From Patescibacteria group bacterium (lineage in GTDB: Bacteria > Patescibacteriota > Minisyncoccia > UBA6257 > HR35): a DNA stretch of 64,000 nucleotides. Shown piece after piece: positions 4,624 through 63,226 of this stretch (the stretch's first letter is position 1; each line of letters opens with the position of its first letter). The notes beneath the pieces are model-generated. The model saw only the letters and a program-made list of their open reading frames with translations. It made no database searches and was not told the DNA's origin. Made by a program: the position numbers and the translations under genes. The DNA is taken from positions 53,307 to 117,306 of the forward strand of contig JAUQQN010000002.1 of the NCBI GenBank assembly GCA_030549845.1, given 5' to 3'.

Positions 4624-6096
4624 TTACTTTATATAATAAAGTCTAATAGAACATTTGCCACCTACATAAGCTTTTCTTGCTATTGCTGCATAATCAATAT
4701 AAAACTTATCTGAGCCTTCTAAGATAAATCTCATACCATCAAAATTCTTATAAATAACAAAATCATAACCCCAACCTCCTGCCCAATCTTCTCGGCCATA
4801 ATAATGTAGTGAATTAATCCCCCTCTTAAGATTTTTGAACTCTATGACATTGGATTCGAAACTTGAAGGAGGTTGAAGGTTACCTAATCTTTCTCTTGAA
4901 ACAATATATCCTGTCCAAAATCTTCCATATACTTTTCTATTCCAATTTCCCAGATTCTCGCTGGTTATGGTATCCCTTACAAAATAAGGAAATATTTGGT
5001 TAGCATATATAATGGAACCAGTCAAATTATCATCACCACTTTTACTAACTAAACCAACGCCTATAGCTAACTTATTAGGTATTAAAAATGCACATATACC
5101 CACTGTGCCATCTTCATATTTAACTTGTACTCCGATTATACTTTTGCTTATTAATGATTGGAATTCAGAAATACTTTCATATCCTACAGCTTCGTATCTT
5201 TCTTGCCATACCATATTTTTTGTAAAATCTTGAACAAAGTAATTGCTTAAACCCTTTTCAATAACTTTACCCTTAAGGCATACATAATCCTGTCTTTGAA
5301 GTTCTGGTATTTCTATATAAGCAATTAATGAGCAATCATCGCCTTGACTTTGAGCTATTTTTATATCCACATATCCTTTTGTCGCAACTTGTTCTGGCGG
5401 TGAGTTTTCAGTAGGAGTTTGAGCAAAAAGAGAAGCCAATATTGAGGTATAGACAGGTTCTGATTTTATTGGTTTAGCTTCTAAAGTATATAAATTACCT
5501 GAGGAAGAAAGCCTTAGATCATATTTCCCTGATGGTATAGGTAATGAAATAGTGGTATTTATTGTTTCAAAACCATTAGCGAACAAATCGTAGAGTTCAT
5601 CGGTTATTGGTGTTTTACCAGGATAATAGAAATATTTTTTGCCACTATTGTAATCATAACCAAAGTCTAATGAAGGCGTTCTTTCAAATATGTTAGTTTG
5701 TTGCCTTGTATAAGCTCTGAAGGATTTATGGCATATACCCCAGGAATTACATCCACCATCTATATCATATGCAACTTGGATATTTGAAGGAGCATTGGAC
5801 CATTGATAAGAATTAGGACAGTTAATATCATTTGAATTTATATCGCATGGCAATCTTGTAACTGTAGTAGCATACTGAAGGGTAGGTTTATTGGTATCTT
5901 CGATAATTTTATAGTGAGAAATATTAATTTTCAAAAACTTAAATCCTTCATTTTCAGTTTTAAATACTGTGTATTTTTGTTGGGTTTGTTGTGCTTTGAT
6001 TTGAGGAAGTGGGATTGTTAATATAAGTAGGGTTAAGAAAGAAAGTAAGATTCCTGTAAAGATTCCTATAAGTATTTGCTTTTTATTGTTTTGCAT
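4624..6096 (-). CDS. Secreted or membrane-anchored Cys-rich hypothetical protein; paralog of 55135-56085
   Basis: N-terminal signal anchor. The segment QQKYTVFKTENEGFKFL right after the anchor is nearly identical in the paralog (QQKYTTFKTENVGFKFL). Internal ATKGYVD motif. No enzymatic motifs. Confidence 0.5.
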   Translation of the reverse strand: MQNNKKQILIGIFTGILLSFLTLLILTIPLPQIKAQQTQQKYTVFKTENEGFKFLKINISHYKIIEDTNKPTLQYATTVTRLPCDINSNDINCPNSYQWSNAPSNIQVAYDIDGGCNSWGICHKSFRAYTRQQTNIFERTPSLDFGYDYNSGKKYFYYPGKTPITDELYDLFANGFETINTTISLPIPSGKYDLRLSSSGNLYTLEAKPIKSEPVYTSILASLFAQTPTENSPPEQVATKGYVDIKIAQSQGDDCSLIAYIEIPELQRQDYVCLKGKVIEKGLSNYFVQDFTKNMVWQERYEAVGYESISEFQSLISKSIIGVQVKYEDGTVGICAFLIPNKLAIGVGLVSKSGDDNLTGSIIYANQIFPYFVRDTITSENLGNWNRKVYGRFWTGYIVSRERLGNLQPPSSFESNVIEFKNLKRGINSLHYYGREDWAGGWGYDFVIYKNFDGMRFILEGSDKFYIDYAAIARKAYVGGKCSIRLYYIK

Positions 6097-7220: not shown

Positions 7221-7759
7221 TGTAAAACTTCTTTTTCTTTTTCCTTAAATAATTCATCGACTTTTTTATTAAATTCTTCAATTTCTTTATCTACTTTTTC
7301 TTTTGTTTTATAAAACAAGTCTTCTGATATCTCTTTTTTTTCTTTTTTATTTTTTAATTCTTTTAAGAAATCATCCCTTAATTTTCTTGATCTTATTCTA
7401 AATTCTTCTTTCAGCTGATTTAGGTTTTTTAATAATTCTTTTTTTGTCTCCTCAGTCAAAGGTGGGAAAGTTACTATTAAATAATTTTTCTCTCTTATTA
7501 CACTTCCTCCAAAATTAGTTTTCTTTATATCTCTTTCAATATCAGAAATTATATTTAAATCCCAGGGTTCAACTTTATATTTTAAAAGATCCAACTGGGA
7601 TATGCTTGCCAATGATTTTAATTCATACTTACTATTATATGCTTCAATAAAAACATTTTCCAGCCAATGTAAAGCAAATCTATAACTTCTAATCTGTTTT
7701 AATTTCTCTCTTATCTCACTGATTAATTTTTCCAAATCCTTTTTAAAATCTTCAATCAT
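7217..7759 (-). CDS. frr: Ribosome recycling factor
   Basis: 180 aa with characteristic RRF segments (PPLTEETKKELLK, ISEDL...KVDKEIEEF). Start overlaps the upstream small ORF in an ATGA arrangement. Confidence 0.8.
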   Translation of the reverse strand: MIEDFKKDLEKLISEIREKLKQIRSYRFALHWLENVFIEAYNSKYELKSLASISQLDLLKYKVEPWDLNIISDIERDIKKTNFGGSVIREKNYLIVTFPPLTEETKKELLKNLNQLKEEFRIRSRKLRDDFLKELKNKKEKKEISEDLFYKTKEKVDKEIEEFNKKVDELFKEKEKEVLQ

Positions 7760-7914
7760 CTCAAATGTAGTATTTCAATTATATAAGGAGTTAATTTTGA
7801 ACCTGCTTCTTGAATAAACTTCATTAATGTTTCTTCTGATATCCCAAGCCCTATTAAAAAAACAATTAATCCTATCAAAAATACAGTTTTTAACAGATTG
7901 AAAGCTTTATCCAT
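7756..7914 (-). CDS. Small hydrophobic ORF (52 aa) translationally coupled between holB and frr
   Basis: MDKAFNLLKTVFLIGLIVFLIGLGISEETLMKFIQEAGSKLTPYIIEILHLR. Its start overlaps the holB stop and its TGA stop overlaps the frr ATG. It is below the ORF-track cutoff. Confidence 0.3.
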   Translation of the reverse strand: MDKAFNLLKTVFLIGLIVFLIGLGISEETLMKFIQEAGSKLTPYIIEILHLR

Positions 7915-8698
7915 TTAAATTTAATAATATATTACTTAGCTGCAATGTTTTATTCAAAGAATAATCTGAATCTTGATATAAACCTTCTAAAAATTTAATC
8001 TTATAAATAGATTCTCTGTTGCCCAGCATTAAATTTAATCTTTCTATATGAATAAAGTATACTAAAGCTTCTTTTAAGTCTATTTTATCCTCCAAAGTTA
8101 ATACATTGTAGATTTTTTCGAAATCATCCTTACTTTTGTACATTTTTACAAGTAAATTAAACATTTCTTTATTTTCTATCGTTTTTAAAATTTTACCTAT
8201 TTGGCCTGGGAAAAGTTGTAAAAGGATTTTTATGGTTTCTCTTTTTATTCCTTTTTTAATCAAAAATTCTTCAATTTCAGAATTGGGCACTAATTTAAAA
8301 ATAATTTTTTGCATTCTAGATCTAATTGTAGAAAGAATTTTATAAGGTCTATGAGTTACGAAAAACAATATAGCACTTGTTTTTATTTCTTCAACAATTT
8401 TTAAAAGTGAATTTTGTGCTTCCTTGTTTAATTTATGAGCATCATTTATAACAATTACTCTTTTTTCATCTGCTGATAAACTTAAAAGTTTTTGTAATAA
8501 ATTTGCTGTATGAAGTTTTAAGATATTTTCTTCAGAATCTACAAATATTTTATCCTTTATACCTTCATCTTCTACTATTTTTTTTATAGTATAAAACTTA
8601 CCTACACCTTCTGGTCCAATTATTATAAAAGCTCCTCTTTGATATTCTCTTAAAATTTTTCTAATTATTTCTTGTTCATTTTTATGGCCTATTATCAT
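7907..8698 (-). CDS. holB: DNA polymerase III delta-prime-like clamp-loader subunit
   Basis: AAA+ core with Walker A IIGPEGVGKF and VINDAHKLNKEAQNSLLKIVEE (sensor and box motifs). 263 aa. Confidence 0.6.
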   Translation of the reverse strand: MIIGHKNEQEIIRKILREYQRGAFIIIGPEGVGKFYTIKKIVEDEGIKDKIFVDSEENILKLHTANLLQKLLSLSADEKRVIVINDAHKLNKEAQNSLLKIVEEIKTSAILFFVTHRPYKILSTIRSRMQKIIFKLVPNSEIEEFLIKKGIKRETIKILLQLFPGQIGKILKTIENKEMFNLLVKMYKSKDDFEKIYNVLTLEDKIDLKEALVYFIHIERLNLMLGNRESIYKIKFLEGLYQDSDYSLNKTLQLSNILLNLNG

Positions 8699-9745: not shown

Positions 9746-11482
9746 ATGAACAAAATTACAATCCTAGAAATAATTCCTATTGAACCCTTACCCCATAATT
9801 CTCCAGATACATTCTTATATTTTTCAACAGAACCTGTTGAAAGGGGTAGTATAGTTAAAATTACCCTTAAAAATATTAAAACTTATGGTTATGTTTATAA
9901 TACAAAATTTATTGAAGATATTAAAATAATTTTAAAAGATTTAGAATTTGAGTTAAAACCTATCGAGGGCATCTACAAACAAAAAAGATTTATAAGCTCA
10001 ATTCAAGAAAATTTTGCTGAGTGGATTGCTAAAAATTATTATCTGTCTTTAGCTCATAGTTTTTATTTTTTCCTTAGTTTCTTCAACAAGATTGAAAATG
10101 ATATTGAAGCAAAGGAAGAAAAGGGTCACAAATTTTTGAAAAAGTATGAGAGTGAATTTAACATAAATAACTTGCAAAACCTCCCTATTTTAATAATAAC
10201 TCCTACAGAAGATTATGCAAAAATAATTTATGAAAAACTTGATGAAAAATATAAAAATAATGTAGTTTATTTAGATTTAGAAAAACCAAAAAGACATTTC
10301 AAGGAGTTTGCGAATCTAATTTTAAACAAAGAAATGAAAATATTTATTGGAAGCAAAAATTCTATATTCCTTCCTTGGCAAAAATTAAATCAAATTATTG
10401 TTTTAGAAGAGGGGAATATTTTTTATAAAGAATTCTTTAAATCTCCTTATTTTAATTATTTAAATTTAATAGAAAAGTTAGCTAAGCTTCTTAAGACAGA
10501 ACTTATATTAATCGACAAAATACCTTCTTTAAAAACTTTTTTCGATTTTACTTTAAGTTATAAAAATCTAAAAGAAATAGAAGTAAAAAAATTTGATAGC
10601 ATATTTGAGCTTGAAAAAATAATTAAAGACTATAAAACAATAAGGGTTTTTACCCCTTTAAAAATATTAAGCAAAAAAATAAGATGCAATGCGTGTTTTT
10701 ACGAGTTTTTGTGTCCTAAATGTAATTTTCCTTTATCTGTTTACGAAAATTCTGCTTATTGCAGAATTTGTTTTAAAAAATATAGTTTCCAAGACAAATG
10801 TCCTAATTGTAATTCAAATGATATCTATATTAAAGGAATCGGGGCAATTTGGTTAAAAAGGTTTTTAGAAAAAAATGGTTACTTTGTATGGTTTATTAAA
10901 AATAAAAAAGAAATCAAAGAATTTCTATCTCATAATTTTGAAAGGTTTATAATTTTAGGGAGCTATAATATTTTAAATCCATTTTTACCTAATACTGAAA
11001 TTTCGATTTTTGTTAATTTTGACCAAGCTTTTTATTCATGGAATCCATTTTTAAAAGAAAGATACATAAGAATAATTTATAAACTTTCTGAGTTTTCGCC
11101 TATAGTTTATCTTCACACAAATAAAAACATAGAATTTATAGAGAAAATAAAAAATTTTTCTATAATAAATGAAATTTTAGAAGAAAGAAGAATAAATAAG
11201 CTTCCTCCTTTTTATAGATTAGTAAAATTAATTTCAAGATTAAAAAAACTTGAAGAACTAAATAAAAGATTATTAGAAATAAAGAGAGAAATTGAAAAAA
11301 GAATTTTATTAAGCAAAGAATATGCAGAAATTAGTGGACCTTTTTTGGAAAGAATTCCCCTAAGAAAAAGGCGATATCAAATGTTTTTATTGATAAGATC
11401 CAAAAACGAAATAAATTTAAAAAAATTATTAAGCGATATTCCCTACATTGAAGAAATAAAAGCTGATGAAGAAGATATTTAA
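9746..11482 (+). CDS. priA: PriA-like primosomal protein with all helicase ATPase motifs degenerate
   Basis: N-terminal 3'-DNA-binding-like region. PriA-type Cys4 zinc-binding insertion (CNACFYEFLCPKCN...CRICF...CPNCN). C-terminal LPPFYRLVKL. Walker A absent (NLQNLPILIITPTED where GVTGSGKT is expected). DEEH replaced by LEEG. GSATPS replaced by IDKIPS. Arg-finger motif absent. Start chosen at the internal Met (MNKITILE) to avoid the mreB overlap. Confidence 0.65.
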   Translation: MNKITILEIIPIEPLPHNSPDTFLYFSTEPVERGSIVKITLKNIKTYGYVYNTKFIEDIKIILKDLEFELKPIEGIYKQKRFISSIQENFAEWIAKNYYLSLAHSFYFFLSFFNKIENDIEAKEEKGHKFLKKYESEFNINNLQNLPILIITPTEDYAKIIYEKLDEKYKNNVVYLDLEKPKRHFKEFANLILNKEMKIFIGSKNSIFLPWQKLNQIIVLEEGNIFYKEFFKSPYFNYLNLIEKLAKLLKTELILIDKIPSLKTFFDFTLSYKNLKEIEVKKFDSIFELEKIIKDYKTIRVFTPLKILSKKIRCNACFYEFLCPKCNFPLSVYENSAYCRICFKKYSFQDKCPNCNSNDIYIKGIGAIWLKRFLEKNGYFVWFIKNKKEIKEFLSHNFERFIILGSYNILNPFLPNTEISIFVNFDQAFYSWNPFLKERYIRIIYKLSEFSPIVYLHTNKNIEFIEKIKNFSIINEILEERRINKLPPFYRLVKLISRLKKLEELNKRLLEIKREIEKRILLSKEYAEISGPFLERIPLRKRRYQMFLLIRSKNEINLKKLLSDIPYIEEIKADEEDI

Positions 11483-21998: not shown

Positions 21999-22073
21999 TG
22001 GTGGGCGGGCCGGGCCTTGAACCCGGATCTCTCTCACTTTTAGAGAGCGCCTTCCCCTTTAAGCCACCCGCCC
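21999..22073 (-). tRNA. tRNA-like gene with an atypical anticodon loop; isotype unresolved
   Basis: Perfect 7-bp GC acceptor stem (GGGCGGG/CCCGCCC), D-arm with GG, T-arm CCGGG-TTCAAGG-CCCGG, discriminator A and a genomically encoded CCA. The anticodon stem CTCTC/GAGAG encloses the loop TAAAAGT, with A at position 33 and an AAA/AAG-type anticodon. Confidence 0.55.
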
Positions 22074-39712: not shown

Positions 39713-39754
39713 TAATTAAAGAAATTTGCGAACTCGAAAAAAGTAAGAATTTAT
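39713..39754 (+). repeat. Direct repeat copy B (42 bp)
   Basis: ttaattaaagaaatttgcgaactcgaaaaaagtaagaattta; it lies in a short remnant ORF ending ...RLIKEICELEKSKNLSEF. Confidence 0.8.
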
Positions 39755-39929
39755 CTGAATTTTAAAATTCTATGGTGCCAATAAGAAAGTTGTAATTGCC
39801 ATATCTATCAGTATACATACAATAGATTTACTCCCAGCATTTTTATTCTATTTTTCCATACAACTTCTCTAATAATTCTTTCACTTTTACATTTCATTAC
39901 TTTTATCTCTAAATCCTGCCTTTATTCAA

Positions 39930-40703
39930 TTAAATATGAATGCCAAAGTAAATCAAAATATATTTCAATGAGACATAGAAAAACAAAAGACCAAACAAGA
40001 ATTTCAAGATATTTGGTTTGAATTTTGCTACGAGCTTTGCGCCATAAATTGCGCCGATTAAAGCGCCGATACCCAAAGCAATTGCTACTGGAATATCAAC
40101 AACACCTTGAAAAAGTTTAAAGAAAGCACCCACCAAGGCCATCCAGACAAAAGCAGCCATTGAAGTACCAATTGCCAGCTTTACTGGTGCTTTCAAAAAA
40201 TAGATGTAAGAAGGGACTAAAGCATAACCACCTCCAAGACCGATAATGCCAGTTAAAATGCCAATAGCTGAACCTAAAATTGTTTTTACTAGCGGCTTAC
40301 CTGGAATTTCCACACCTTGCACAGTTTGGCTTTTAGTAAATAATCCTTCATAAAGCATTCGGACCGAAACGATGATAAAAGCAATACCAATAATCAAGTC
40401 AATTAAATTACCGTAATGTTTAATATAACCAAAAACAATTGAACCAATAATTACACCCAAAATTCCTGCATAACCAGTTAAAAGTGCTGTTTCTTTATCA
40501 ACATTTTTCATTTTAAAATGCTGATAAGCACCCGATGCGGCAGTAAAAACTACTGCCGTTAAAGTTGTACCAATAGCAACTGCTGGATCAAAATGAAAAA
40601 CAAAACGAATAACTGGCATTATTAAAGCACAACCTCCAGTACCTAAAAGCCCGCCGATAACTCCAGCCAAGAAACCGGTGATAAGATAAATTAAGTAAAT
40701 CAT
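39930..40703 (-). CDS. TSUP (TauE/SafE) family anion exporter
   Basis: 257 aa, eight TM helices, internal twofold repeat with GxGGG-like motifs (GGLLGTGG / IGLGGGY). Confidence 0.8.
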   Translation of the reverse strand: MIYLIYLITGFLAGVIGGLLGTGGCALIMPVIRFVFHFDPAVAIGTTLTAVVFTAASGAYQHFKMKNVDKETALLTGYAGILGVIIGSIVFGYIKHYGNLIDLIIGIAFIIVSVRMLYEGLFTKSQTVQGVEIPGKPLVKTILGSAIGILTGIIGLGGGYALVPSYIYFLKAPVKLAIGTSMAAFVWMALVGAFFKLFQGVVDIPVAIALGIGALIGAIYGAKLVAKFKPNILKFLFGLLFFYVSLKYILIYFGIHI

Positions 40704-40863
40704 AATTTCTCTTTCTAGTTTTTAATTCCAGAAAAACTCGGAAATTATTAAAATAATTAATGATATATCAAAACTTTCAAAAATTACCAAAGAATTAAAT
40801 ATAGTTTTAATTACTTTAAACAACTACTGAATTAACAAAATTTCAAACAACGTCACTAAATTA

Positions 40864-41526
40864 TTATAATAAACCTTTTTCTTTTAACCTTTTTAATAAC
40901 CTTTCTAACCCCTCAACAATATATTCAACATGAAGAGCGCCGCAAGAAACTAAAATCTTAGCATTAGGATTTTCGCTTAATATGTTATTAATTTTCTCTA
41001 CCGTAACTCTACTTCTTTCTGGTATCATAATTGTAGCTATTATTTCTGCTATTTGTTTCTCTCCTAAATTGAATTGCTTTAGATAATTCTTTAAATAATC
41101 AACCATGTGTTTGTGTTTAAATAATATCCATTCTCGCATCTTTGCTCCACTCATATCACCAGCAATAACCCTTACTTTATTCTTCTTGGCTTCTTCTACT
41201 AACTTTTGATAATCGATAGAAAGTTTTTCAAGTTGAGAAATTTCTACTATTTTGTCCTGTACAAATTCATCAAGGGTTTGTTGCATATCTTCAGAAAGTT
41301 CTAAAATTAAATGAGTATACTGCCCACTTTGCAAAGCAACTATTAATTCAAAAACACGAGGTCGATCGTGAAATTCACCAAAAATATGCACATTACCAAT
41401 TTCAATGAACTCCTTAGAAATTTCTTCTAGGGTTTTTCCTTTTATTTCAATGAGTTTCTTAGAAATTTCTTCTAGAGAAATTCCTGCTAGAGTTTTTCCT
41501 TTTTTGCCTTCTCCAAATTCTTTCAT
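40864..41526 (-). CDS. ChaN-like (Tiki/TraB/GumN superfamily) protein
   Basis: GNVHIFGEFHDRPRVFELIVAL (GExHd-type motif) and VSCGALHV near the C-terminus. The N-terminal region has an internal tandem peptide repeat. Confidence 0.4.
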   Translation of the reverse strand: MKEFGEGKKGKTLAGISLEEISKKLIEIKGKTLEEISKEFIEIGNVHIFGEFHDRPRVFELIVALQSGQYTHLILELSEDMQQTLDEFVQDKIVEISQLEKLSIDYQKLVEEAKKNKVRVIAGDMSGAKMREWILFKHKHMVDYLKNYLKQFNLGEKQIAEIIATIMIPERSRVTVEKINNILSENPNAKILVSCGALHVEYIVEGLERLLKRLKEKGLL

Positions 41527-41661
41527 ATTTTAATTATTGTTTATTTTAATCATTTTTTGGTTTCGACCTTTATTATCTTTTATTTTTAGCAATTTTTCGA
41601 TTTCACTCATAATAATCTAAATTATACCTCAATTTCTTATGCGCGGAGGCTAGGTAAAGAC

Positions 41662-41689
41662 TTGACAAATTTTGAAAATATGGTGTAAT
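41662..41689 (+). promoter_or_regulatory. Sigma70-like promoter (TTGACA-N16-TGTAAT) for the GC-rich ORF
   Basis: Consensus -35 TTGACA at 41662-41667, 16-nt spacer, -10 TGTAAT at 41684-41689, then a perfect SD AAAGGAGGTG at 41706-41715, 6 nt before the ATG. Confidence 0.5.
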
Positions 41690-41721
41690 TTTAAATGGTA
41701 AACTAAAAGGAGGTGTTTGGA

Positions 41722-42120
41722 ATGAAGATTATCAATTTGACCCCTCATCCCTGTGTCATCCTGCGGGAAGACCCGCAGGGGGACATCGAAGGTGTCGAAG
41801 GTGTAGGGAGTGAAGTTCGCCGCTACAGAAAAATCGCAGAATTGCCACCGTCCGGCAAGGTGGCACGCGCCAGTCAAAAGGAAGAAATTGCTGGTTTCAT
41901 TTTGGTTAACGACGTGGAGGTCCCCGTAGTCAGAATGACTTACGGGGAACCCATCAATTTACCAGAGCCAAAAGAAGGAGTAGTTTATTTTGTCTCCCTC
42001 CTCACAGCCCAGGCTGCGGCGGCCACCGGACGCCGGACAGATGACTTAGTGTTTGCTGGGAAAACAGTTAGGAGTAAGGAGGGCTCAATAATCGGTATAA
42101 CTTCCTTCGGTAAATTATGA
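41722..42120 (+). CDS. GC-rich (about 50% GC) 133-aa hypothetical protein of likely foreign origin
   Basis: MKIINLTPHPCVILREDPQGDIEGVEGVGSEVRRYRKIAELPPSGKVARASQKEEIAGFILVNDVEVPVVRMTYGEPINLPEPKEGVVYFVSLLTAQAAAATGRRTD... with codon usage unlike the AT-rich host. Has its own promoter, SD and terminator. Confidence 0.55.
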   Translation: MKIINLTPHPCVILREDPQGDIEGVEGVGSEVRRYRKIAELPPSGKVARASQKEEIAGFILVNDVEVPVVRMTYGEPINLPEPKEGVVYFVSLLTAQAAAATGRRTDDLVFAGKTVRSKEGSIIGITSFGKL

Positions 42121-42143
42121 TGATGAGAAGTTGCAGGTTTCAA

Positions 42144-42172
42144 GGGAGCCTAAGAAAGGGCTCCCATTTTTT
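42144..42172 (+). terminator. Rho-independent terminator
   Basis: GGGAGCC-TAAGAAA-GGCTCCC followed by ATTTTTT. Confidence 0.7.
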
Positions 42173-42432
42173 CAGTCAAAAAAGAGTATTCGGTTCTCTT
42201 TTTCATGTTTTAGGTTGAAAATAGAATAAGAATTTTAGGTTATTAAGTTCAAATAAAAATAGCCAATTGAAAAACTATAATTTGCGATAGATGTCTTTAC
42301 CTTTTTGATGTGGAGCCAACAACCTCAAGAATTAGCCTTAAATTGTGATTCTTAAATTAAATTAGATAAATTGTGCTATAACTGATTGATTATCAATTAA
42401 TAGAACTGACTTTTAATTTCTCAGCCTCTTTG

Positions 42433-42504
42433 CTCCGGGGGCAGGATTCGAACCTGCGACATCCTGGTTAACAGCCAGGCGTTCTACCGCTGAACTACCC
42501 CGGA
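42433..42504 (-). tRNA. tRNA-Asn (anticodon GTT)
   Basis: 72 nt. U1:A72 and G73. Anticodon loop CTGTTAA. T-loop TTCGAAT. Confidence 0.8.
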
Positions 42505-42533: not shown

Positions 42534-42623
42534 TTAATACAAATCAATACTGGCAATTATTTCAAAATTGCCGCATTGAGAACAGCGAGAAGGTGTCTTT
42601 TTATTTCTGCGTTTCTTTGCCAT
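42534..42623 (-). CDS. Possible 29-aa basic CxxC peptide
   Basis: MAKKRRNKKTPSRCSQCGNFEIIASIDLY, preceded about 25 nt upstream by the recurrent AAGGTCGAAAT motif. Only two Cys, so not a complete zinc ribbon. Confidence 0.25.
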   Translation of the reverse strand: MAKKRRNKKTPSRCSQCGNFEIIASIDLY

Positions 42624-60062: not shown

Positions 60063-62195
60063 TTATTTATGTTTCAAACTTTGTCTATTGTTTATAATAA
60101 CATCAAAAAGATATTGCGGTACTTCTTGATAATGCGAAAATTCCATATAGCTAAATCCTCTTCCTTGAGTTAAAGATCTTAAAACGGTAACATAGCCAAA
60201 CATTTCAGCAAGTGGGACTTTTGCATTTATTTTTTTCATTTCTCCTTGATCCTCCACTAATTCTATTTTAGCCCTTCTTGAAGAAAGATCTCCAATTACA
60301 TCACCTAAAAATTCAGACGGAACTATTACTTCTAATTTCATTATTGGCTCTAAAAATATAGGATTGCCCTTTTTTATGGCATCCTTAAAAGCAATTTCTG
60401 CTGCTATTTTAAAAGCTAAATCAGATGAGTCAACTTCATGAAAAGAGCCATCAAATAATGTAACCCTTACATCCCTTACCGGATAGCCAGCAATTACACC
60501 TTTTTCCATGGCTTCTTTTATTCCTTTTTCAACAGCAGGGATAAAGTTGTCAGGTATAACGCCGCCTTTAATAGCATTTACAAATTCAAATCCTTTACCT
60601 CTTTCTAATGGTTCGACTCTTATAACTACATGTCCGTATTGCCCTCTACCTCCGCTTTGCCTAATATATTTTCCTTCAGCTTCAACTGTTTTGGTTATAG
60701 TTTCATGATAAGCAACCTGCGGAACACCAACGTTTGTTTCAACCTTAAATTCTCTTTTTAGTCTATCCACCATAATTTCTAAATGAAGCTCTCCCATACC
60801 TCCTATTAAAGTATCACCTGTTTCTTGGTCTACTTTTATTTTAAAAGTAGGATCTTCATCAGATAAAGCTTTCAAGTATATACCCATTTTTTCTTGGTCT
60901 TGTTTTGTTTTTGGTTCTATTTTCATCCATATCACAGGTTCAGCGAATTGTATTGCTTCTAACCTAATAGGATGCTTCGGATCGCAAATTGTATCTCCTG
61001 TTTTAAGTTCTTTAACCCCAACTAGTGCACCAATGTCTCCAGCAAATAATTCCTCTATTTCTTCTCTATGATTCGCGTGCATTCTAACTATTCTTCCAGC
61101 TCTAAATGTTTCTCCAGTTCTTGTGTTTAATATAGTGTCACCTCTCTTTAAAACTCCTGAATATACTCTTATATATGTTAGCGAACCAACAAATGGGTCG
61201 ACAGCAAGCTTAAACGCTAAGGCGCAAAATGGTTCGTTATCATCTGATTTTCTGTATATTTCAGCACCAGTATCAGGATGCCAACCTCTTACAGGTGGCA
61301 AATCAACAGGAGAAGGCAAAAAGTCAATTACCCCATCTAAAATTAATTGAACACCTTTATTTTTCAAAGCTGAACCTGCATAAACTGGTATAAAAGTATA
61401 GTTTATACAAGCCCTTCTAATTGCTTCTCTTATTTCATCTTCATTAAATTCTCCCTTAAAGTATTTTTCCATAAATATCTCATCTGATTCTGCTAATTTT
61501 TCTAACATCATATTTCTATATTTTTCAGCATATTCTTTTAGTTCATTTGGTATCTCTTCCACTTTTAAAATTTCTCCTTTGTCTCCTTCAAAGTAAACGG
61601 CTTTCATTCTTATTAGATCTATAACTCCCTTGAAAGCTTCTTCTATTCCTATAGGGATAGTAACAGGTACAGCATTTTTTGTAAGCCTTTGATGAATAGA
61701 TTGTAAAGATTTTTCAAAGTTTGCACCTAATCTATCTAATTTATTTATAAAGCATAACCTAGGCACCTTATACTTATCTGCTTGATGCCAAACAGTTTCG
61801 GATTGAGCTTCAACTCCTTGTACCCCATCAAATATAACTATTGCTCCATCTAAAACACGTAAAGAGCGCTCAACTTCAGCAGTGAAATCTACATGGCCTG
61901 GGGTATCAATTATGTTTATTTTATATTCCCCTTTTATTCTTTCTTCTTTTGTAGTTGCTTGTTTTTTATAACTTTGAGTCCAAAAACATGTAACAGCAGC
62001 AGCAGTGATAGTTATACCTCTTTCTCTTTCTTGTGGCATCCAATCAGTAACAGTTGTACCTTCATGCACTTCACCAATTTTGTGAGACATTCCAGTGTAA
62101 TACAAAATTCTTTCAGTGGTTGTTGTTTTACCAGCATCAATATGAGCTATTATTCCTATATTTCTTGTCTTTTCAATTGAATAAATCCTTGGCAT
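60063..62195 (-). CDS. fusA: Elongation factor G
   Basis: [35 protein letters not shown]... with all five EF-G domains over the 710-aa length. Confidence 0.95.
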
Positions 62196-63154: not shown

Positions 63155-63226
63155 TGCCTGGGGAGGGAATCGAACCCCCGACGCCGGGCTCTTCAGGCCC
63201 GCGCTCTACCACTGAGCTACCCAGGC
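63155..63226 (-). tRNA. tRNA-Phe (anticodon GAA)
   Basis: 72 nt. Acceptor GCCTGGG/CCCAGGC with A73. Anticodon loop CTGAAGA. T-loop TTCGATT. Confidence 0.8.

Follow-up and report, generated by a model that had tools for sequence, protein, structure and literature searches.

A portable GC-rich gene cassette in an AT-rich patescibacterial chromosome probably encodes a Crn4-family ring nuclease

Introduction

How does a conspicuously GC-rich gene, complete with its own expression signals, come to stand in a very AT-rich bacterial chromosome, and what might its product do there? The question is raised by a promoter-Shine-Dalgarno-ORF-terminator unit at positions 41662-42172 (plus strand) of a 64-kb stretch of a Patescibacteria group bacterium genome; this whole analysed stretch is referred to below as the window. 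An initial annotation, made from the sequence alone, had read the unit as a foreign gene cassette whose product matched no family that it recognised. On re-reading the sequence, we found every element that it had listed, each where it had been placed.

The protein can now be compared with the ring nuclease Crn4, whose publication in December 2025 drew on 22 genes linked to CRISPR and on some 20 copies from phages or plasmids, and which forms a homodimer with a previously unseen fold (PMC12830947). Two subfamilies have known structures: Crn4a from Actinomyces procaprae (WP_136192672; PDB 9sma and 9qs9), which acts on cA3, cA4 and cA6, and CRISPR ring nuclease 4 subfamily b, Crn4b, from Hyphomicrobiales (MBK8772583; PDB 9r7b), which acts on cA3 and cA4 (PMC12830947). 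Crn4 assays were carried out in EDTA and gave linear products with 2',3'-cyclic phosphate ends (PMC12830947). We argue below that the window probably carries a horizontally exchanged single-gene cassette, equipped with its own expression signals and encoding a member of this ring nuclease family.

Results

The cassette ORF has a GC content of 0.506 and a third-position GC content (GC3) of 0.511, against 0.283 GC for the whole 64-kb window, in agreement with the earlier description of a gene of about 50% GC with G/C-ending codons on a background of about 28%. The 53 other ORFs of the window average 0.284 ± 0.039 GC (maximum 0.358) and 0.179 ± 0.027 GC3, which places the cassette ORF at z = +5.6 and z = +12.3 respectively. 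A CAI-like codon-adaptation index trained on these 53 ORFs, a check that the initial annotation had proposed, stands at 0.35 for the cassette and at 0.71 ± 0.04 for the other ORFs (z = -9.6). Foreign origin would have been called into question had many host genes shared this composition, but GC3 in the other ORFs reaches a maximum of 0.256; across the whole window no other protein-coding stretch comes near the cassette in composition, and the one further 400-nt stretch that exceeds 0.40 GC holds a cluster of tRNA genes. These data support the conclusion that the cassette is compositionally foreign to its host.

An abrupt GC step of this kind could also arise from an assembly chimera or a contaminant, or from a structured RNA gene of high GC mistaken for an ORF, the GC-rich islands of AT-rich genomes being mostly RNA genes. 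We consider this reading extremely improbable. The interval 39714-42458 is 100% identical in the Logan assembly of SRR21619497 (L001), and it is also covered by a contig from a second sample, SRR27730014 (L025). As two independent read sets assemble through both GC junctions, at 41.6 and 42.2 kb, the junctions that the initial annotation had wanted checked are real and do not reflect a chimera. Rfam yields no match within 41400-42450, even at E ≤ 10, beyond chance-level snoRNA and miRNA scores, and a known structured RNA is thereby ruled out for this interval. Comparison with the L025 allele also argues against an RNA gene: the differences are distributed 14/5/41 over the three codon positions, dN/dS is 0.09 and every indel is in frame, while an AlphaFold2 model of the 132-aa monomer predicts a confident fold (mean pLDDT 96.2). 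The cassette thus contains a real protein-coding gene under purifying selection.

The expression signals are compactly arranged. A sigma-70-type promoter occupies 41662-41689 on the plus strand, with TTGACA at 41662-41667, a 16-nt spacer and TGTAAT at 41684-41689, and an extended -10 element is provided by a TG at 41681-41682, two bases 5' of TGTAAT. What had been called a consensus promoter is therefore present as TTGACA-N16-TGTAAT, but its -10 box is one base off consensus, lacking the A at position 2; this non-consensus box is why a sigma-70 scan passed over it. In the sister strain L025 the same position reads TATAAT. The pattern TTGACA-N16-18-TNTAAT matches once in the 64 kb, at the cassette promoter, where 0.45 matches are expected by chance, so that the match taken alone is not significant. 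From its sequence, the promoter is predicted to be active, with transcription starting near 41697.

A Shine-Dalgarno sequence, AAAGGAGGTG, lies at 41706-41715 (plus strand), with the end of its GGAGG 8 nt 5' of the ATG at 41722. Its predicted duplex with a generic anti-Shine-Dalgarno sequence has an energy of -12.9 kcal/mol, whereas the runner-up among the 54 ORFs of the window reaches -5.9 and the mean is -1.0 kcal/mol; the cassette thus has the sole strong Shine-Dalgarno sequence in the window, as the description of a perfect site nearly absent from other genes had implied. Translation led by a Shine-Dalgarno sequence would be an unusual route in this genome: in 14 of the 54 ORFs a TANAAT box precedes the ATG by 3-14 nt, which gives them a leaderless look. 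The gene itself (41722-42120, plus strand) encodes 132 aa from its ATG, one fewer than the 133 previously counted, and an alternative GTG start at 41713 would extend the product to 135 aa. A conserved 5'-UTR hairpin was considered for the GC-rich homologues and rejected, the consensus structure being unconvincing at -3.5 kcal/mol.

Downstream of the gene, a terminator scan recovered the hairpin and T-tract that had been noted before as an intrinsic terminator, at 42144-42172 on the plus strand. Its 8-bp stem (GGGAGCCT/GGGCTCCC, six G-C pairs) and 6-nt loop span 42144-42165 and its T-run reaches 42172; the L025 terminator is the same save for one loop base, and a terminator function is predicted. 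The cassette is also flanked by a 10-nt perfect inverted repeat (41652-41661 and 42293-42302), whose TAAAGAC core recurs around the homologous cassette of locus L002. We rejected these repeats as terminal repeats of a mobile unit: the right-hand L002 copy lies within an AT-rich hairpin that resembles the terminator of a convergent gene, and the motif is missing from five other loci.

What does the gene encode? Pfam gives no match for the 132-aa protein even at E ≤ 10, and two PHROG families of unknown function match it at E of about 1e-15. A large protein collection contains 28 relatives, which share the motifs NLTPH, AR, VS, GR and VR..G.I.G. Searched against the PDB, a profile of these 28 homologues retrieves Crn4b (9r7b, E = 3e-18), Crn4a (9sma, 1.5e-9) and the Crn4a H15A variant (9qs9, 7e-8), with NLTPH and VR..G.I.G aligned between the profile and the Crn4 structures; the cassette protein as a single sequence matches Crn4b at E = 5e-4. 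The PADLOC model Unk_01 matches residues 1-131 at E = 2.8e-15, and C3a69 matches at 9.6e-7. Unk01 is Crn4 according to the Crn4 paper (PMC12830947). In a Foldseek search with the AlphaFold2 model, Crn4 chains are the sole matches at E ≤ 0.001 (TM scores of 0.68/0.77 to 9r7b), and the model displays the beta-rich core, single short helix and extended beta-hairpin arm of the Crn4 fold. Sequence, predicted fold and catalytic motifs together identify the protein as a member of the Crn4 family, so the earlier statement that it matches no recognised family has to be given up.

The residues on which catalysis depends in Crn4a are H15 and R112, both essential, together with the conserved T13 (PMC12830947). 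In the cassette protein, T7 and H9 of the NLTPH motif, each retained by 90% or more of the 28 homologues, align with T13 and H15 of Crn4a and also with Crn4b, and R117, invariant in 28 of 28, aligns with the Arg of the VRD motif (R112 of Crn4a, R103 of Crn4b). At the R117 position an AT-rich paralogue in locus L026 has Lys. A ligand-contact pair, Ser-Arg (S91/R92 in Crn4a), is structurally conserved in Crn4b, and R92 of Crn4a makes a main-chain ligand contact and stacks on adenine (PMC12830947). S92 of the cassette protein is conserved and aligns with S91, but it is followed by Leu (other subfamily members have Leu, Val or Ile at this position) in place of the adenine-stacking R92. Two insertions further set the subfamily apart, one of about 20 aa in the region of the N-terminal hairpin and one of about 5 aa behind the helix. 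Identity of the cassette protein is about 30% to Crn4b and about 23-29% to Crn4a. Searching 1.84 billion cluster representatives with a profile returned 9152 relatives at E ≤ 0.001, 4914 of them at E ≤ 1e-10.

The second sample offers a direct view of how the gene behaves between sister strains. Gene order is the same in L025 and the window. Identity is 98-99% in the flanks, among which we count promoter, terminator and the spacer to the tRNA, but only about 82% from the Shine-Dalgarno sequence to 17 nt past the stop codon. Synonymous divergence (dS) reaches 0.68 in the cassette gene, whereas the ChaN-like gene next to it shows 0.016, a contrast which indicates that at least one allele was imported after the strains split. 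The differences between the alleles are clustered in blocks (p = 0.0002, codon position controlled), and GC3 is near 0.51 in both. The simplest reading is that a divergent allele, drawn from an outside pool of about 50% GC, replaced an earlier one, perhaps as a mosaic, with the crossovers falling within the conserved cassette ends. Faster mutation confined to the transcribed region is a less likely cause of the high dS. Two other sources of divergence were rejected: mutagenesis of the diversity-generating retroelement (DGR) type, as the substitutions are not A-specific, and amelioration, as GC3 is the same in both alleles and the changes run in both directions. A second sister-host pair, L005 and L009, behaves alike, with dS values of 0.78 in the Crn4-like gene and 0.56 in the AAA-Csx3 gene paired with it, against 0.09-0.25 in host genes.

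Close homologues (45-85% identity) occur in other low- to mid-GC genomes, at sites that are syntenic neither with the window, L025 excepted, nor with one another. One of these records bears the label Candidatus Saccharimonas. Homologues at 45% identity or above all exceed their flanks in GC, by 0.11-0.30; examples are L002 (0.49 against 0.27), L004 (0.66 against 0.37) and L008 (0.70 against 0.49). Remote homologues on contigs of 62-70% GC have the same GC as their hosts. The expression signals recur with the gene: homologues in L002, L026 and L015 are preceded by a TTGACA-N17-T(A/G)TAAT promoter and an AAGGAGG Shine-Dalgarno sequence, and sites of the AAGGAGG type are found in L004, L005 and L009 as well. 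A hairpin terminator follows the homologue in L002 and L026 (the L015 contig stops inside the gene), and hairpins of the form GGGAGAGC...GCTCTCCC, similar to the cassette terminator, lie 3' of the homologues in L002, L005 and L009. Positions 41661-41713 of the window are homologous to the promoter-leader of L002 (43 of 56 positions identical, a score reached by none of 300 shuffles), although the genomic context of L002 is unrelated to the window and the DNA past the terminator bears no similarity. Likeness from promoter to Shine-Dalgarno sequence, and its absence past the terminator, delimit the transferable unit closely to 41661-42172.

Might the gene instead be native, its high GC being intrinsic and due to the amino acids that it encodes, to mRNA structure or to the level of its expression? 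Gly, Ala, Arg, Pro and Val are abundant in the protein, its mRNA fold is more stable than that of shuffled versions (z = -4.1), and the gene shows a GC excess in every low-GC host. Locus L026 bears on both sides of the question. It holds two copies of the gene. The GC-rich one has a GC3 of 0.74, the host-like one a GC3 of 0.29 and Lys in place of the catalytic Arg; the host-like copy still lies about 0.08 above host GC, but, as a member of the same subfamily at a GC3 of 0.29, it indicates that high GC is not forced by the protein. Nor is a strong 9-bp hairpin inside the ORF (41757-41782) kept in the homologues. With a GC3 12 SD above that of host genes, non-syntenic positions and a synonymous divergence between sister strains 40-fold that of the neighbouring gene, the native reading is already disfavoured, and we regard it as very unlikely.

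Foreign origin, the first half of the earlier proposal of recent acquisition from a higher-GC donor that uses Shine-Dalgarno sequences, is thus supported; as for a phage source, an IMG/VR protein-pattern scan found no close homologue, with a best match of 35%. The phage and plasmid relatives that we recovered number 12 and 6 records respectively and share 30-35% identity.

The neighbourhood of the cassette consists of ordinary genes, namely those for TauE, a ChaN-like protein, tRNA-Asn, DUF4349, an amino-acid-kinase-family protein (PF00696), an M32 peptidase, queuosine salvage/TGT, a P-type ATPase and CTP synthase, with cell-envelope genes on the opposite side. The gene content of the window is bacterial (MreB, RRF, PriA, EF-G); one member of the 90% cluster to which its EF-G belongs carries the NCBI label 'Candidatus Aenigmatarchaeota archaeon', which we take for a binning error. 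Among the window ORFs, no phage, plasmid or integrase genes were detected near the cassette. The tRNA-Asn(GTT) reported just downstream is indeed there, at 42432-42504 on the minus strand, but its suggested role as an integration site is not supported. Among the window ORFs there is no integrase, and no direct repeat of the tRNA 3' end of the sort that marks a tRNA-targeted island was found: no att-like repeats of that end are convincing, the only matches being imperfect ones of 13-14 nt inside the ORF. Flanking direct repeats around the cassette are likewise unconvincing, and none of the ten other loci has a tRNA within 3 kb of the cassette. The cassette probably spreads through DNA uptake and homologous recombination and not by way of a dedicated integrase.

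Ring nucleases act on cyclic oligoadenylates, and we therefore searched for partners that make or sense these molecules. Compared with Pfam and with the PADLOC models of 2023, which do not contain newer systems such as Panoptes, the 54 window ORFs include no cas gene, CARF/SAVED effector or CBASS cyclase. Within the 64-kb window, the cassette is thus adjacent neither to a type III CRISPR-Cas system nor to a cyclic-oligoadenylate effector such as Csm6-2, CorA, Can2 or TIR-SAVED. The 119 ORFs within 6-10 kb around the ten homologous loci contain no Cas10, Csm/Cmr, CARF/SAVED effectors or CBASS cyclases. The sole partner around these ten loci is AAA-Csx3, found at three of them (L004, L005 and L009) in the same GC-rich island as the homologue (PADLOC C3a67, E of about 1e-50). 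The AAA-Csx3 family was first listed as a type III CRISPR accessory (PMC6546367).

Discussion

The observations above lead us to propose a working model for the cassette. Transcription would start about 7 nt past the -10 box and give a leader of about 25 nt, and the Shine-Dalgarno sequence would drive translation. By analogy with Crn4, the product would form a homodimer in which a long beta-hairpin (residues 49-78) serves as an arm wrapping round the partner subunit, and H9 of one subunit and R117 of the other would make up a shared active site. Metal-free cleavage of cyclic oligoadenylates, with cA4 and cA3 as the likely substrates and possibly cA6 too, would yield linear products with 2',3'-cyclic phosphate ends. 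Constant expression of such an enzyme would provide a sink for cyclic oligoadenylates and keep the effectors that depend on them switched off.

Whom would this benefit? It is possible, though we put it forward tentatively, that the gene is a domesticated host off-switch that resets a cyclic-oligoadenylate defence encoded elsewhere in the genome, for which type III CRISPR, a cA3-type CBASS or a similar system outside the window would be candidates. Resetting is the known job of cellular ring nucleases (PMC12830947). Strong purifying selection, the same chromosomal site in two strains and, at three of the other loci (L004, L005 and L009), pairing with AAA-Csx3, a known type III accessory family (PMC6546367), are consistent with such a role. 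The empty surroundings are less easily reconciled with it, since no cas, cyclase or CARF/SAVED gene lies in the 64-kb window or within 6-10 kb around the ten loci, and foreign composition combined with fast allele turnover would be unusual in a housekeeping regulator.

The gene may on the other hand serve mobile elements. As a moron-like anti-defence gene, left behind by such elements or still moving between them, it would disable cyclic-oligoadenylate signalling on behalf of a phage or plasmid, as AcrIII-1 or the Crn4b of phages and plasmids does. This, too, is a minority reading in our estimation. A promoter-gene-terminator unit of deviant GC resembles a phage moron, the match to PHROG families at E of about 1e-15 and the 12 phage and 6 plasmid records accord with the Crn4 homologues already described from phages and plasmids (PMC12830947), and allele turnover between strains is typical of arms-race genes. 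Against it stand the absence of any phage, plasmid or integrase gene nearby, the modest 35% identity of the best IMG/VR protein-pattern match, and a dN/dS of 0.09, which means that there is no diversifying selection on the protein.

A third reading is a Crn4 fold with a changed function, either a cyclic-nucleotide sponge or a nuclease for some other cyclic or linear oligonucleotide. The orphan ring-nuclease homologue PfCsx15 sequesters cA4 without cleaving it (PMC13148439), Crn4a itself cuts poly-A RNA weakly (PMC12830947), and the present subfamily has two insertions and a Leu in place of the adenine-stacking Arg. However, the catalytic His and Arg, like the Thr and Ser near them, vary little or not at all within the subfamily, which would be unexpected for a pure sponge, and because these catalytic residues are kept we consider a changed function unlikely.

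A wider proposal can be built on the reading of the cassette as an exchanged Crn4-family ring nuclease, namely that a distinct, self-expressing and recombining Crn4-like class circulates in very small, AT-rich and apparently CRISPR-poor bacteria. We regard this as rather unlikely at present. If it were true, cyclic-oligoadenylate signalling, or interference with it, would matter in these organisms irrespective of type III CRISPR, possibly through an unrecognised pathway of a cyclase and AAA-Csx3 or by disturbing the immune signals of a partner or host cell, and the swapping of alleles between strains would be the mark of an ongoing arms race at a single gene.

Several broader points follow from the analysis. 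The Crn4 fold is far commoner than reported, given the number of cluster representatives that the profile retrieves. To the published distribution we add a divergent subfamily that occurs as stand-alone, promoter-bearing cassettes in AT-rich uncultivated bacteria, away from CRISPR loci, and that is exchanged among closely related strains. A gene that would have been annotated as a hypothetical protein becomes a testable enzyme, and the subfamily supplies short, easily synthesised candidates for probing the substrate range of the Crn4 family. What makes cyclic oligoadenylates in such genomes is a further question that the finding poses.

Finally, the cassette may be set against the systems that it most resembles. 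Phage morons are promoter-gene-terminator units of deviant GC that are inserted between phage genes. The cassette shares with them its own sigma-70 promoter, single ORF, intrinsic terminator and a composition unlike its flanks, but its place is in a cellular chromosome, where housekeeping genes flank it and no phage gene is near. AcrIII-1/Crn2 (DUF1874), a ring nuclease of viruses, differs in being unrelated in fold and family, and AcrIII-1 is specific for cA4. Orphan Csx15 sets a precedent for ring-nuclease-family genes outside CRISPR loci, with about 25% of csx15 genes being orphans, although Csx15 has a CARF-like fold and the orphan that was tested is a sponge (PMC13148439).

Within the Crn4 family, Crn4a is the more distant relative. 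It belongs to type III-D loci, beside Csm6-2 or CorA and sometimes fused to an effector (PMC12830947), whereas no such neighbour is found here, and its R92 is not conserved in the cassette protein, with which it shares the lower range of identity given above. Crn4b is closer. Both proteins carry NLTPH as well as VR(D)..G(R)IIG, the motif in which the catalytic Arg lies, both are small and stand alone, and Crn4b-type genes also occur outside CRISPR loci, in phages and plasmids (PMC12830947). The cassette protein differs from Crn4b in its longer N-terminal hairpin region, in the extra residues after the helix and in having Leu for the Arg that follows the conserved Ser. In the window and the ten loci its gene is not beside Can2 or any cas gene, and it forms a promoter-Shine-Dalgarno-terminator unit in very AT-rich chromosomes, with a ring-nuclease activity that is predicted. 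That Crn4b copies travel on phages and plasmids was already known; what is unusual here is a divergent subfamily, packaged as a portable cassette and subject to rapid allele replacement.

Translation signals and mRNA folding

Shine-Dalgarno-like motifs are scarce in the window: of its 54 ORFs, no more than 5 have GGAG, GAGG or AGGA anywhere in the 25 nt upstream of the start codon. In 14 ORFs the ATG is preceded by a TANAAT box whose end lies 3-14 nt away from it. Together, these counts suggest that many mRNAs of this organism have no leader or almost none.

The predicted mRNA of the cassette, the promoter-SD-ORF-terminator unit that carries the Crn4-family ring-nuclease gene (window 41697-42172), folds into a more stable structure than its dinucleotide shuffles do (z = -4.1). 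Within codons 12-21 of the ORF, at 41757-41782, there is a G-C-rich hairpin of 9 bp, which is identical in the sister strain (L025) and is not conserved in the other homologues.

Other genes in the window

Next to the cassette, the minus-strand ChaN-like gene has a 45-nt tandem duplication at its 5’ end (41399-41500, 83% identical), and the encoded protein sequence thus contains the segment 'ISLEEISKKLIEIKGKTLEEISKEF' in repeated form. The 700-nt AT-rich gap past tRNA-Asn contains a putative 29-aa ORF (MAKKRRNKKTPSRCSQCGNFEIIASIDLY; 42534-42623, minus strand), whose product would be basic and have a CxxC motif. Inside a tRNA cluster, ARAGORN predicts a tRNA-Phe with anticodon AAA (21999-22073), whose Rfam score of 43.9 bits is the lowest among eight tRNAs; a normal tRNA-Phe(GAA) is located at 63155-63226.

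The 90%-identity cluster of the window’s EF-G (60063-62195) includes MEM5844551.1, labelled by NCBI as 'Candidatus Aenigmatarchaeota archaeon'. By its gene content, which includes MreB, ribosome recycling factor and PriA, the window is clearly that of a bacterium, and the archaeal label on MEM5844551.1 is probably a binning error.

Repeats flanking the cassettes

The window cassette is flanked on both sides by a perfect 10-nt inverted repeat, AGGTAAAGAC at 41652-41661 and GTCTTTACCT at 42293-42302. Its TAAAGAC core also occurs in inverted orientation on both sides of the cassette in L002, a locus from another genome with a Crn4-like homologue (5920 and 6626), where the right-hand copy is part of a hairpin resembling the terminator of the neighbouring gene. 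Five other loci are without the motif.

A second Crn4-like gene in L026

In a further homologous locus, L026, the stretch that separates the cassette promoter from the CTP synthase gene contains the heptamer GCAGACT about seven times at 10-11-nt spacing (about 7680-7760), an arrangement that looks like an array of protein-binding sites. The same contig holds two Crn4-like genes, a GC-rich copy at 8001-8402 and a second copy 1.5 kb downstream (9884-10321). The latter is host-like in composition (GC 0.38, GC3 0.29), and its product has an N-terminal extension of 11 residues and a lysine in place of the catalytic arginine. It may represent an older, ameliorated copy, possibly inactive.

Crn4-like and AAA-Csx3 genes as a two-gene island

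Upstream of the Crn4-like gene in L004 (about 5880-5990), L005 (about 5870-5990) and L009 (about 7885-7990), three islands from two different hosts, an inverted repeat (GGGGAGCAAATTGGTCA ... TGGTCAGCTTGCTCCCC) is kept, together with a GC-rich hairpin immediately 5’ of the SD; the automatic consensus fold of this region is weak (-3.5 kcal/mol). No cas genes were found near these three islands. In each, the Crn4-like gene lies directly upstream of an AAA-Csx3 fusion gene comprising a P-loop domain and a Csx3 domain (L004 6510-7910, L005 6640-7905, L009 8652-9911; PADLOC C3a67, E about 1e-50). Since AAA-Csx3, a family first listed as a type III CRISPR accessory, shares the high GC of the Crn4-like gene, the pair forms a foreign two-gene island.
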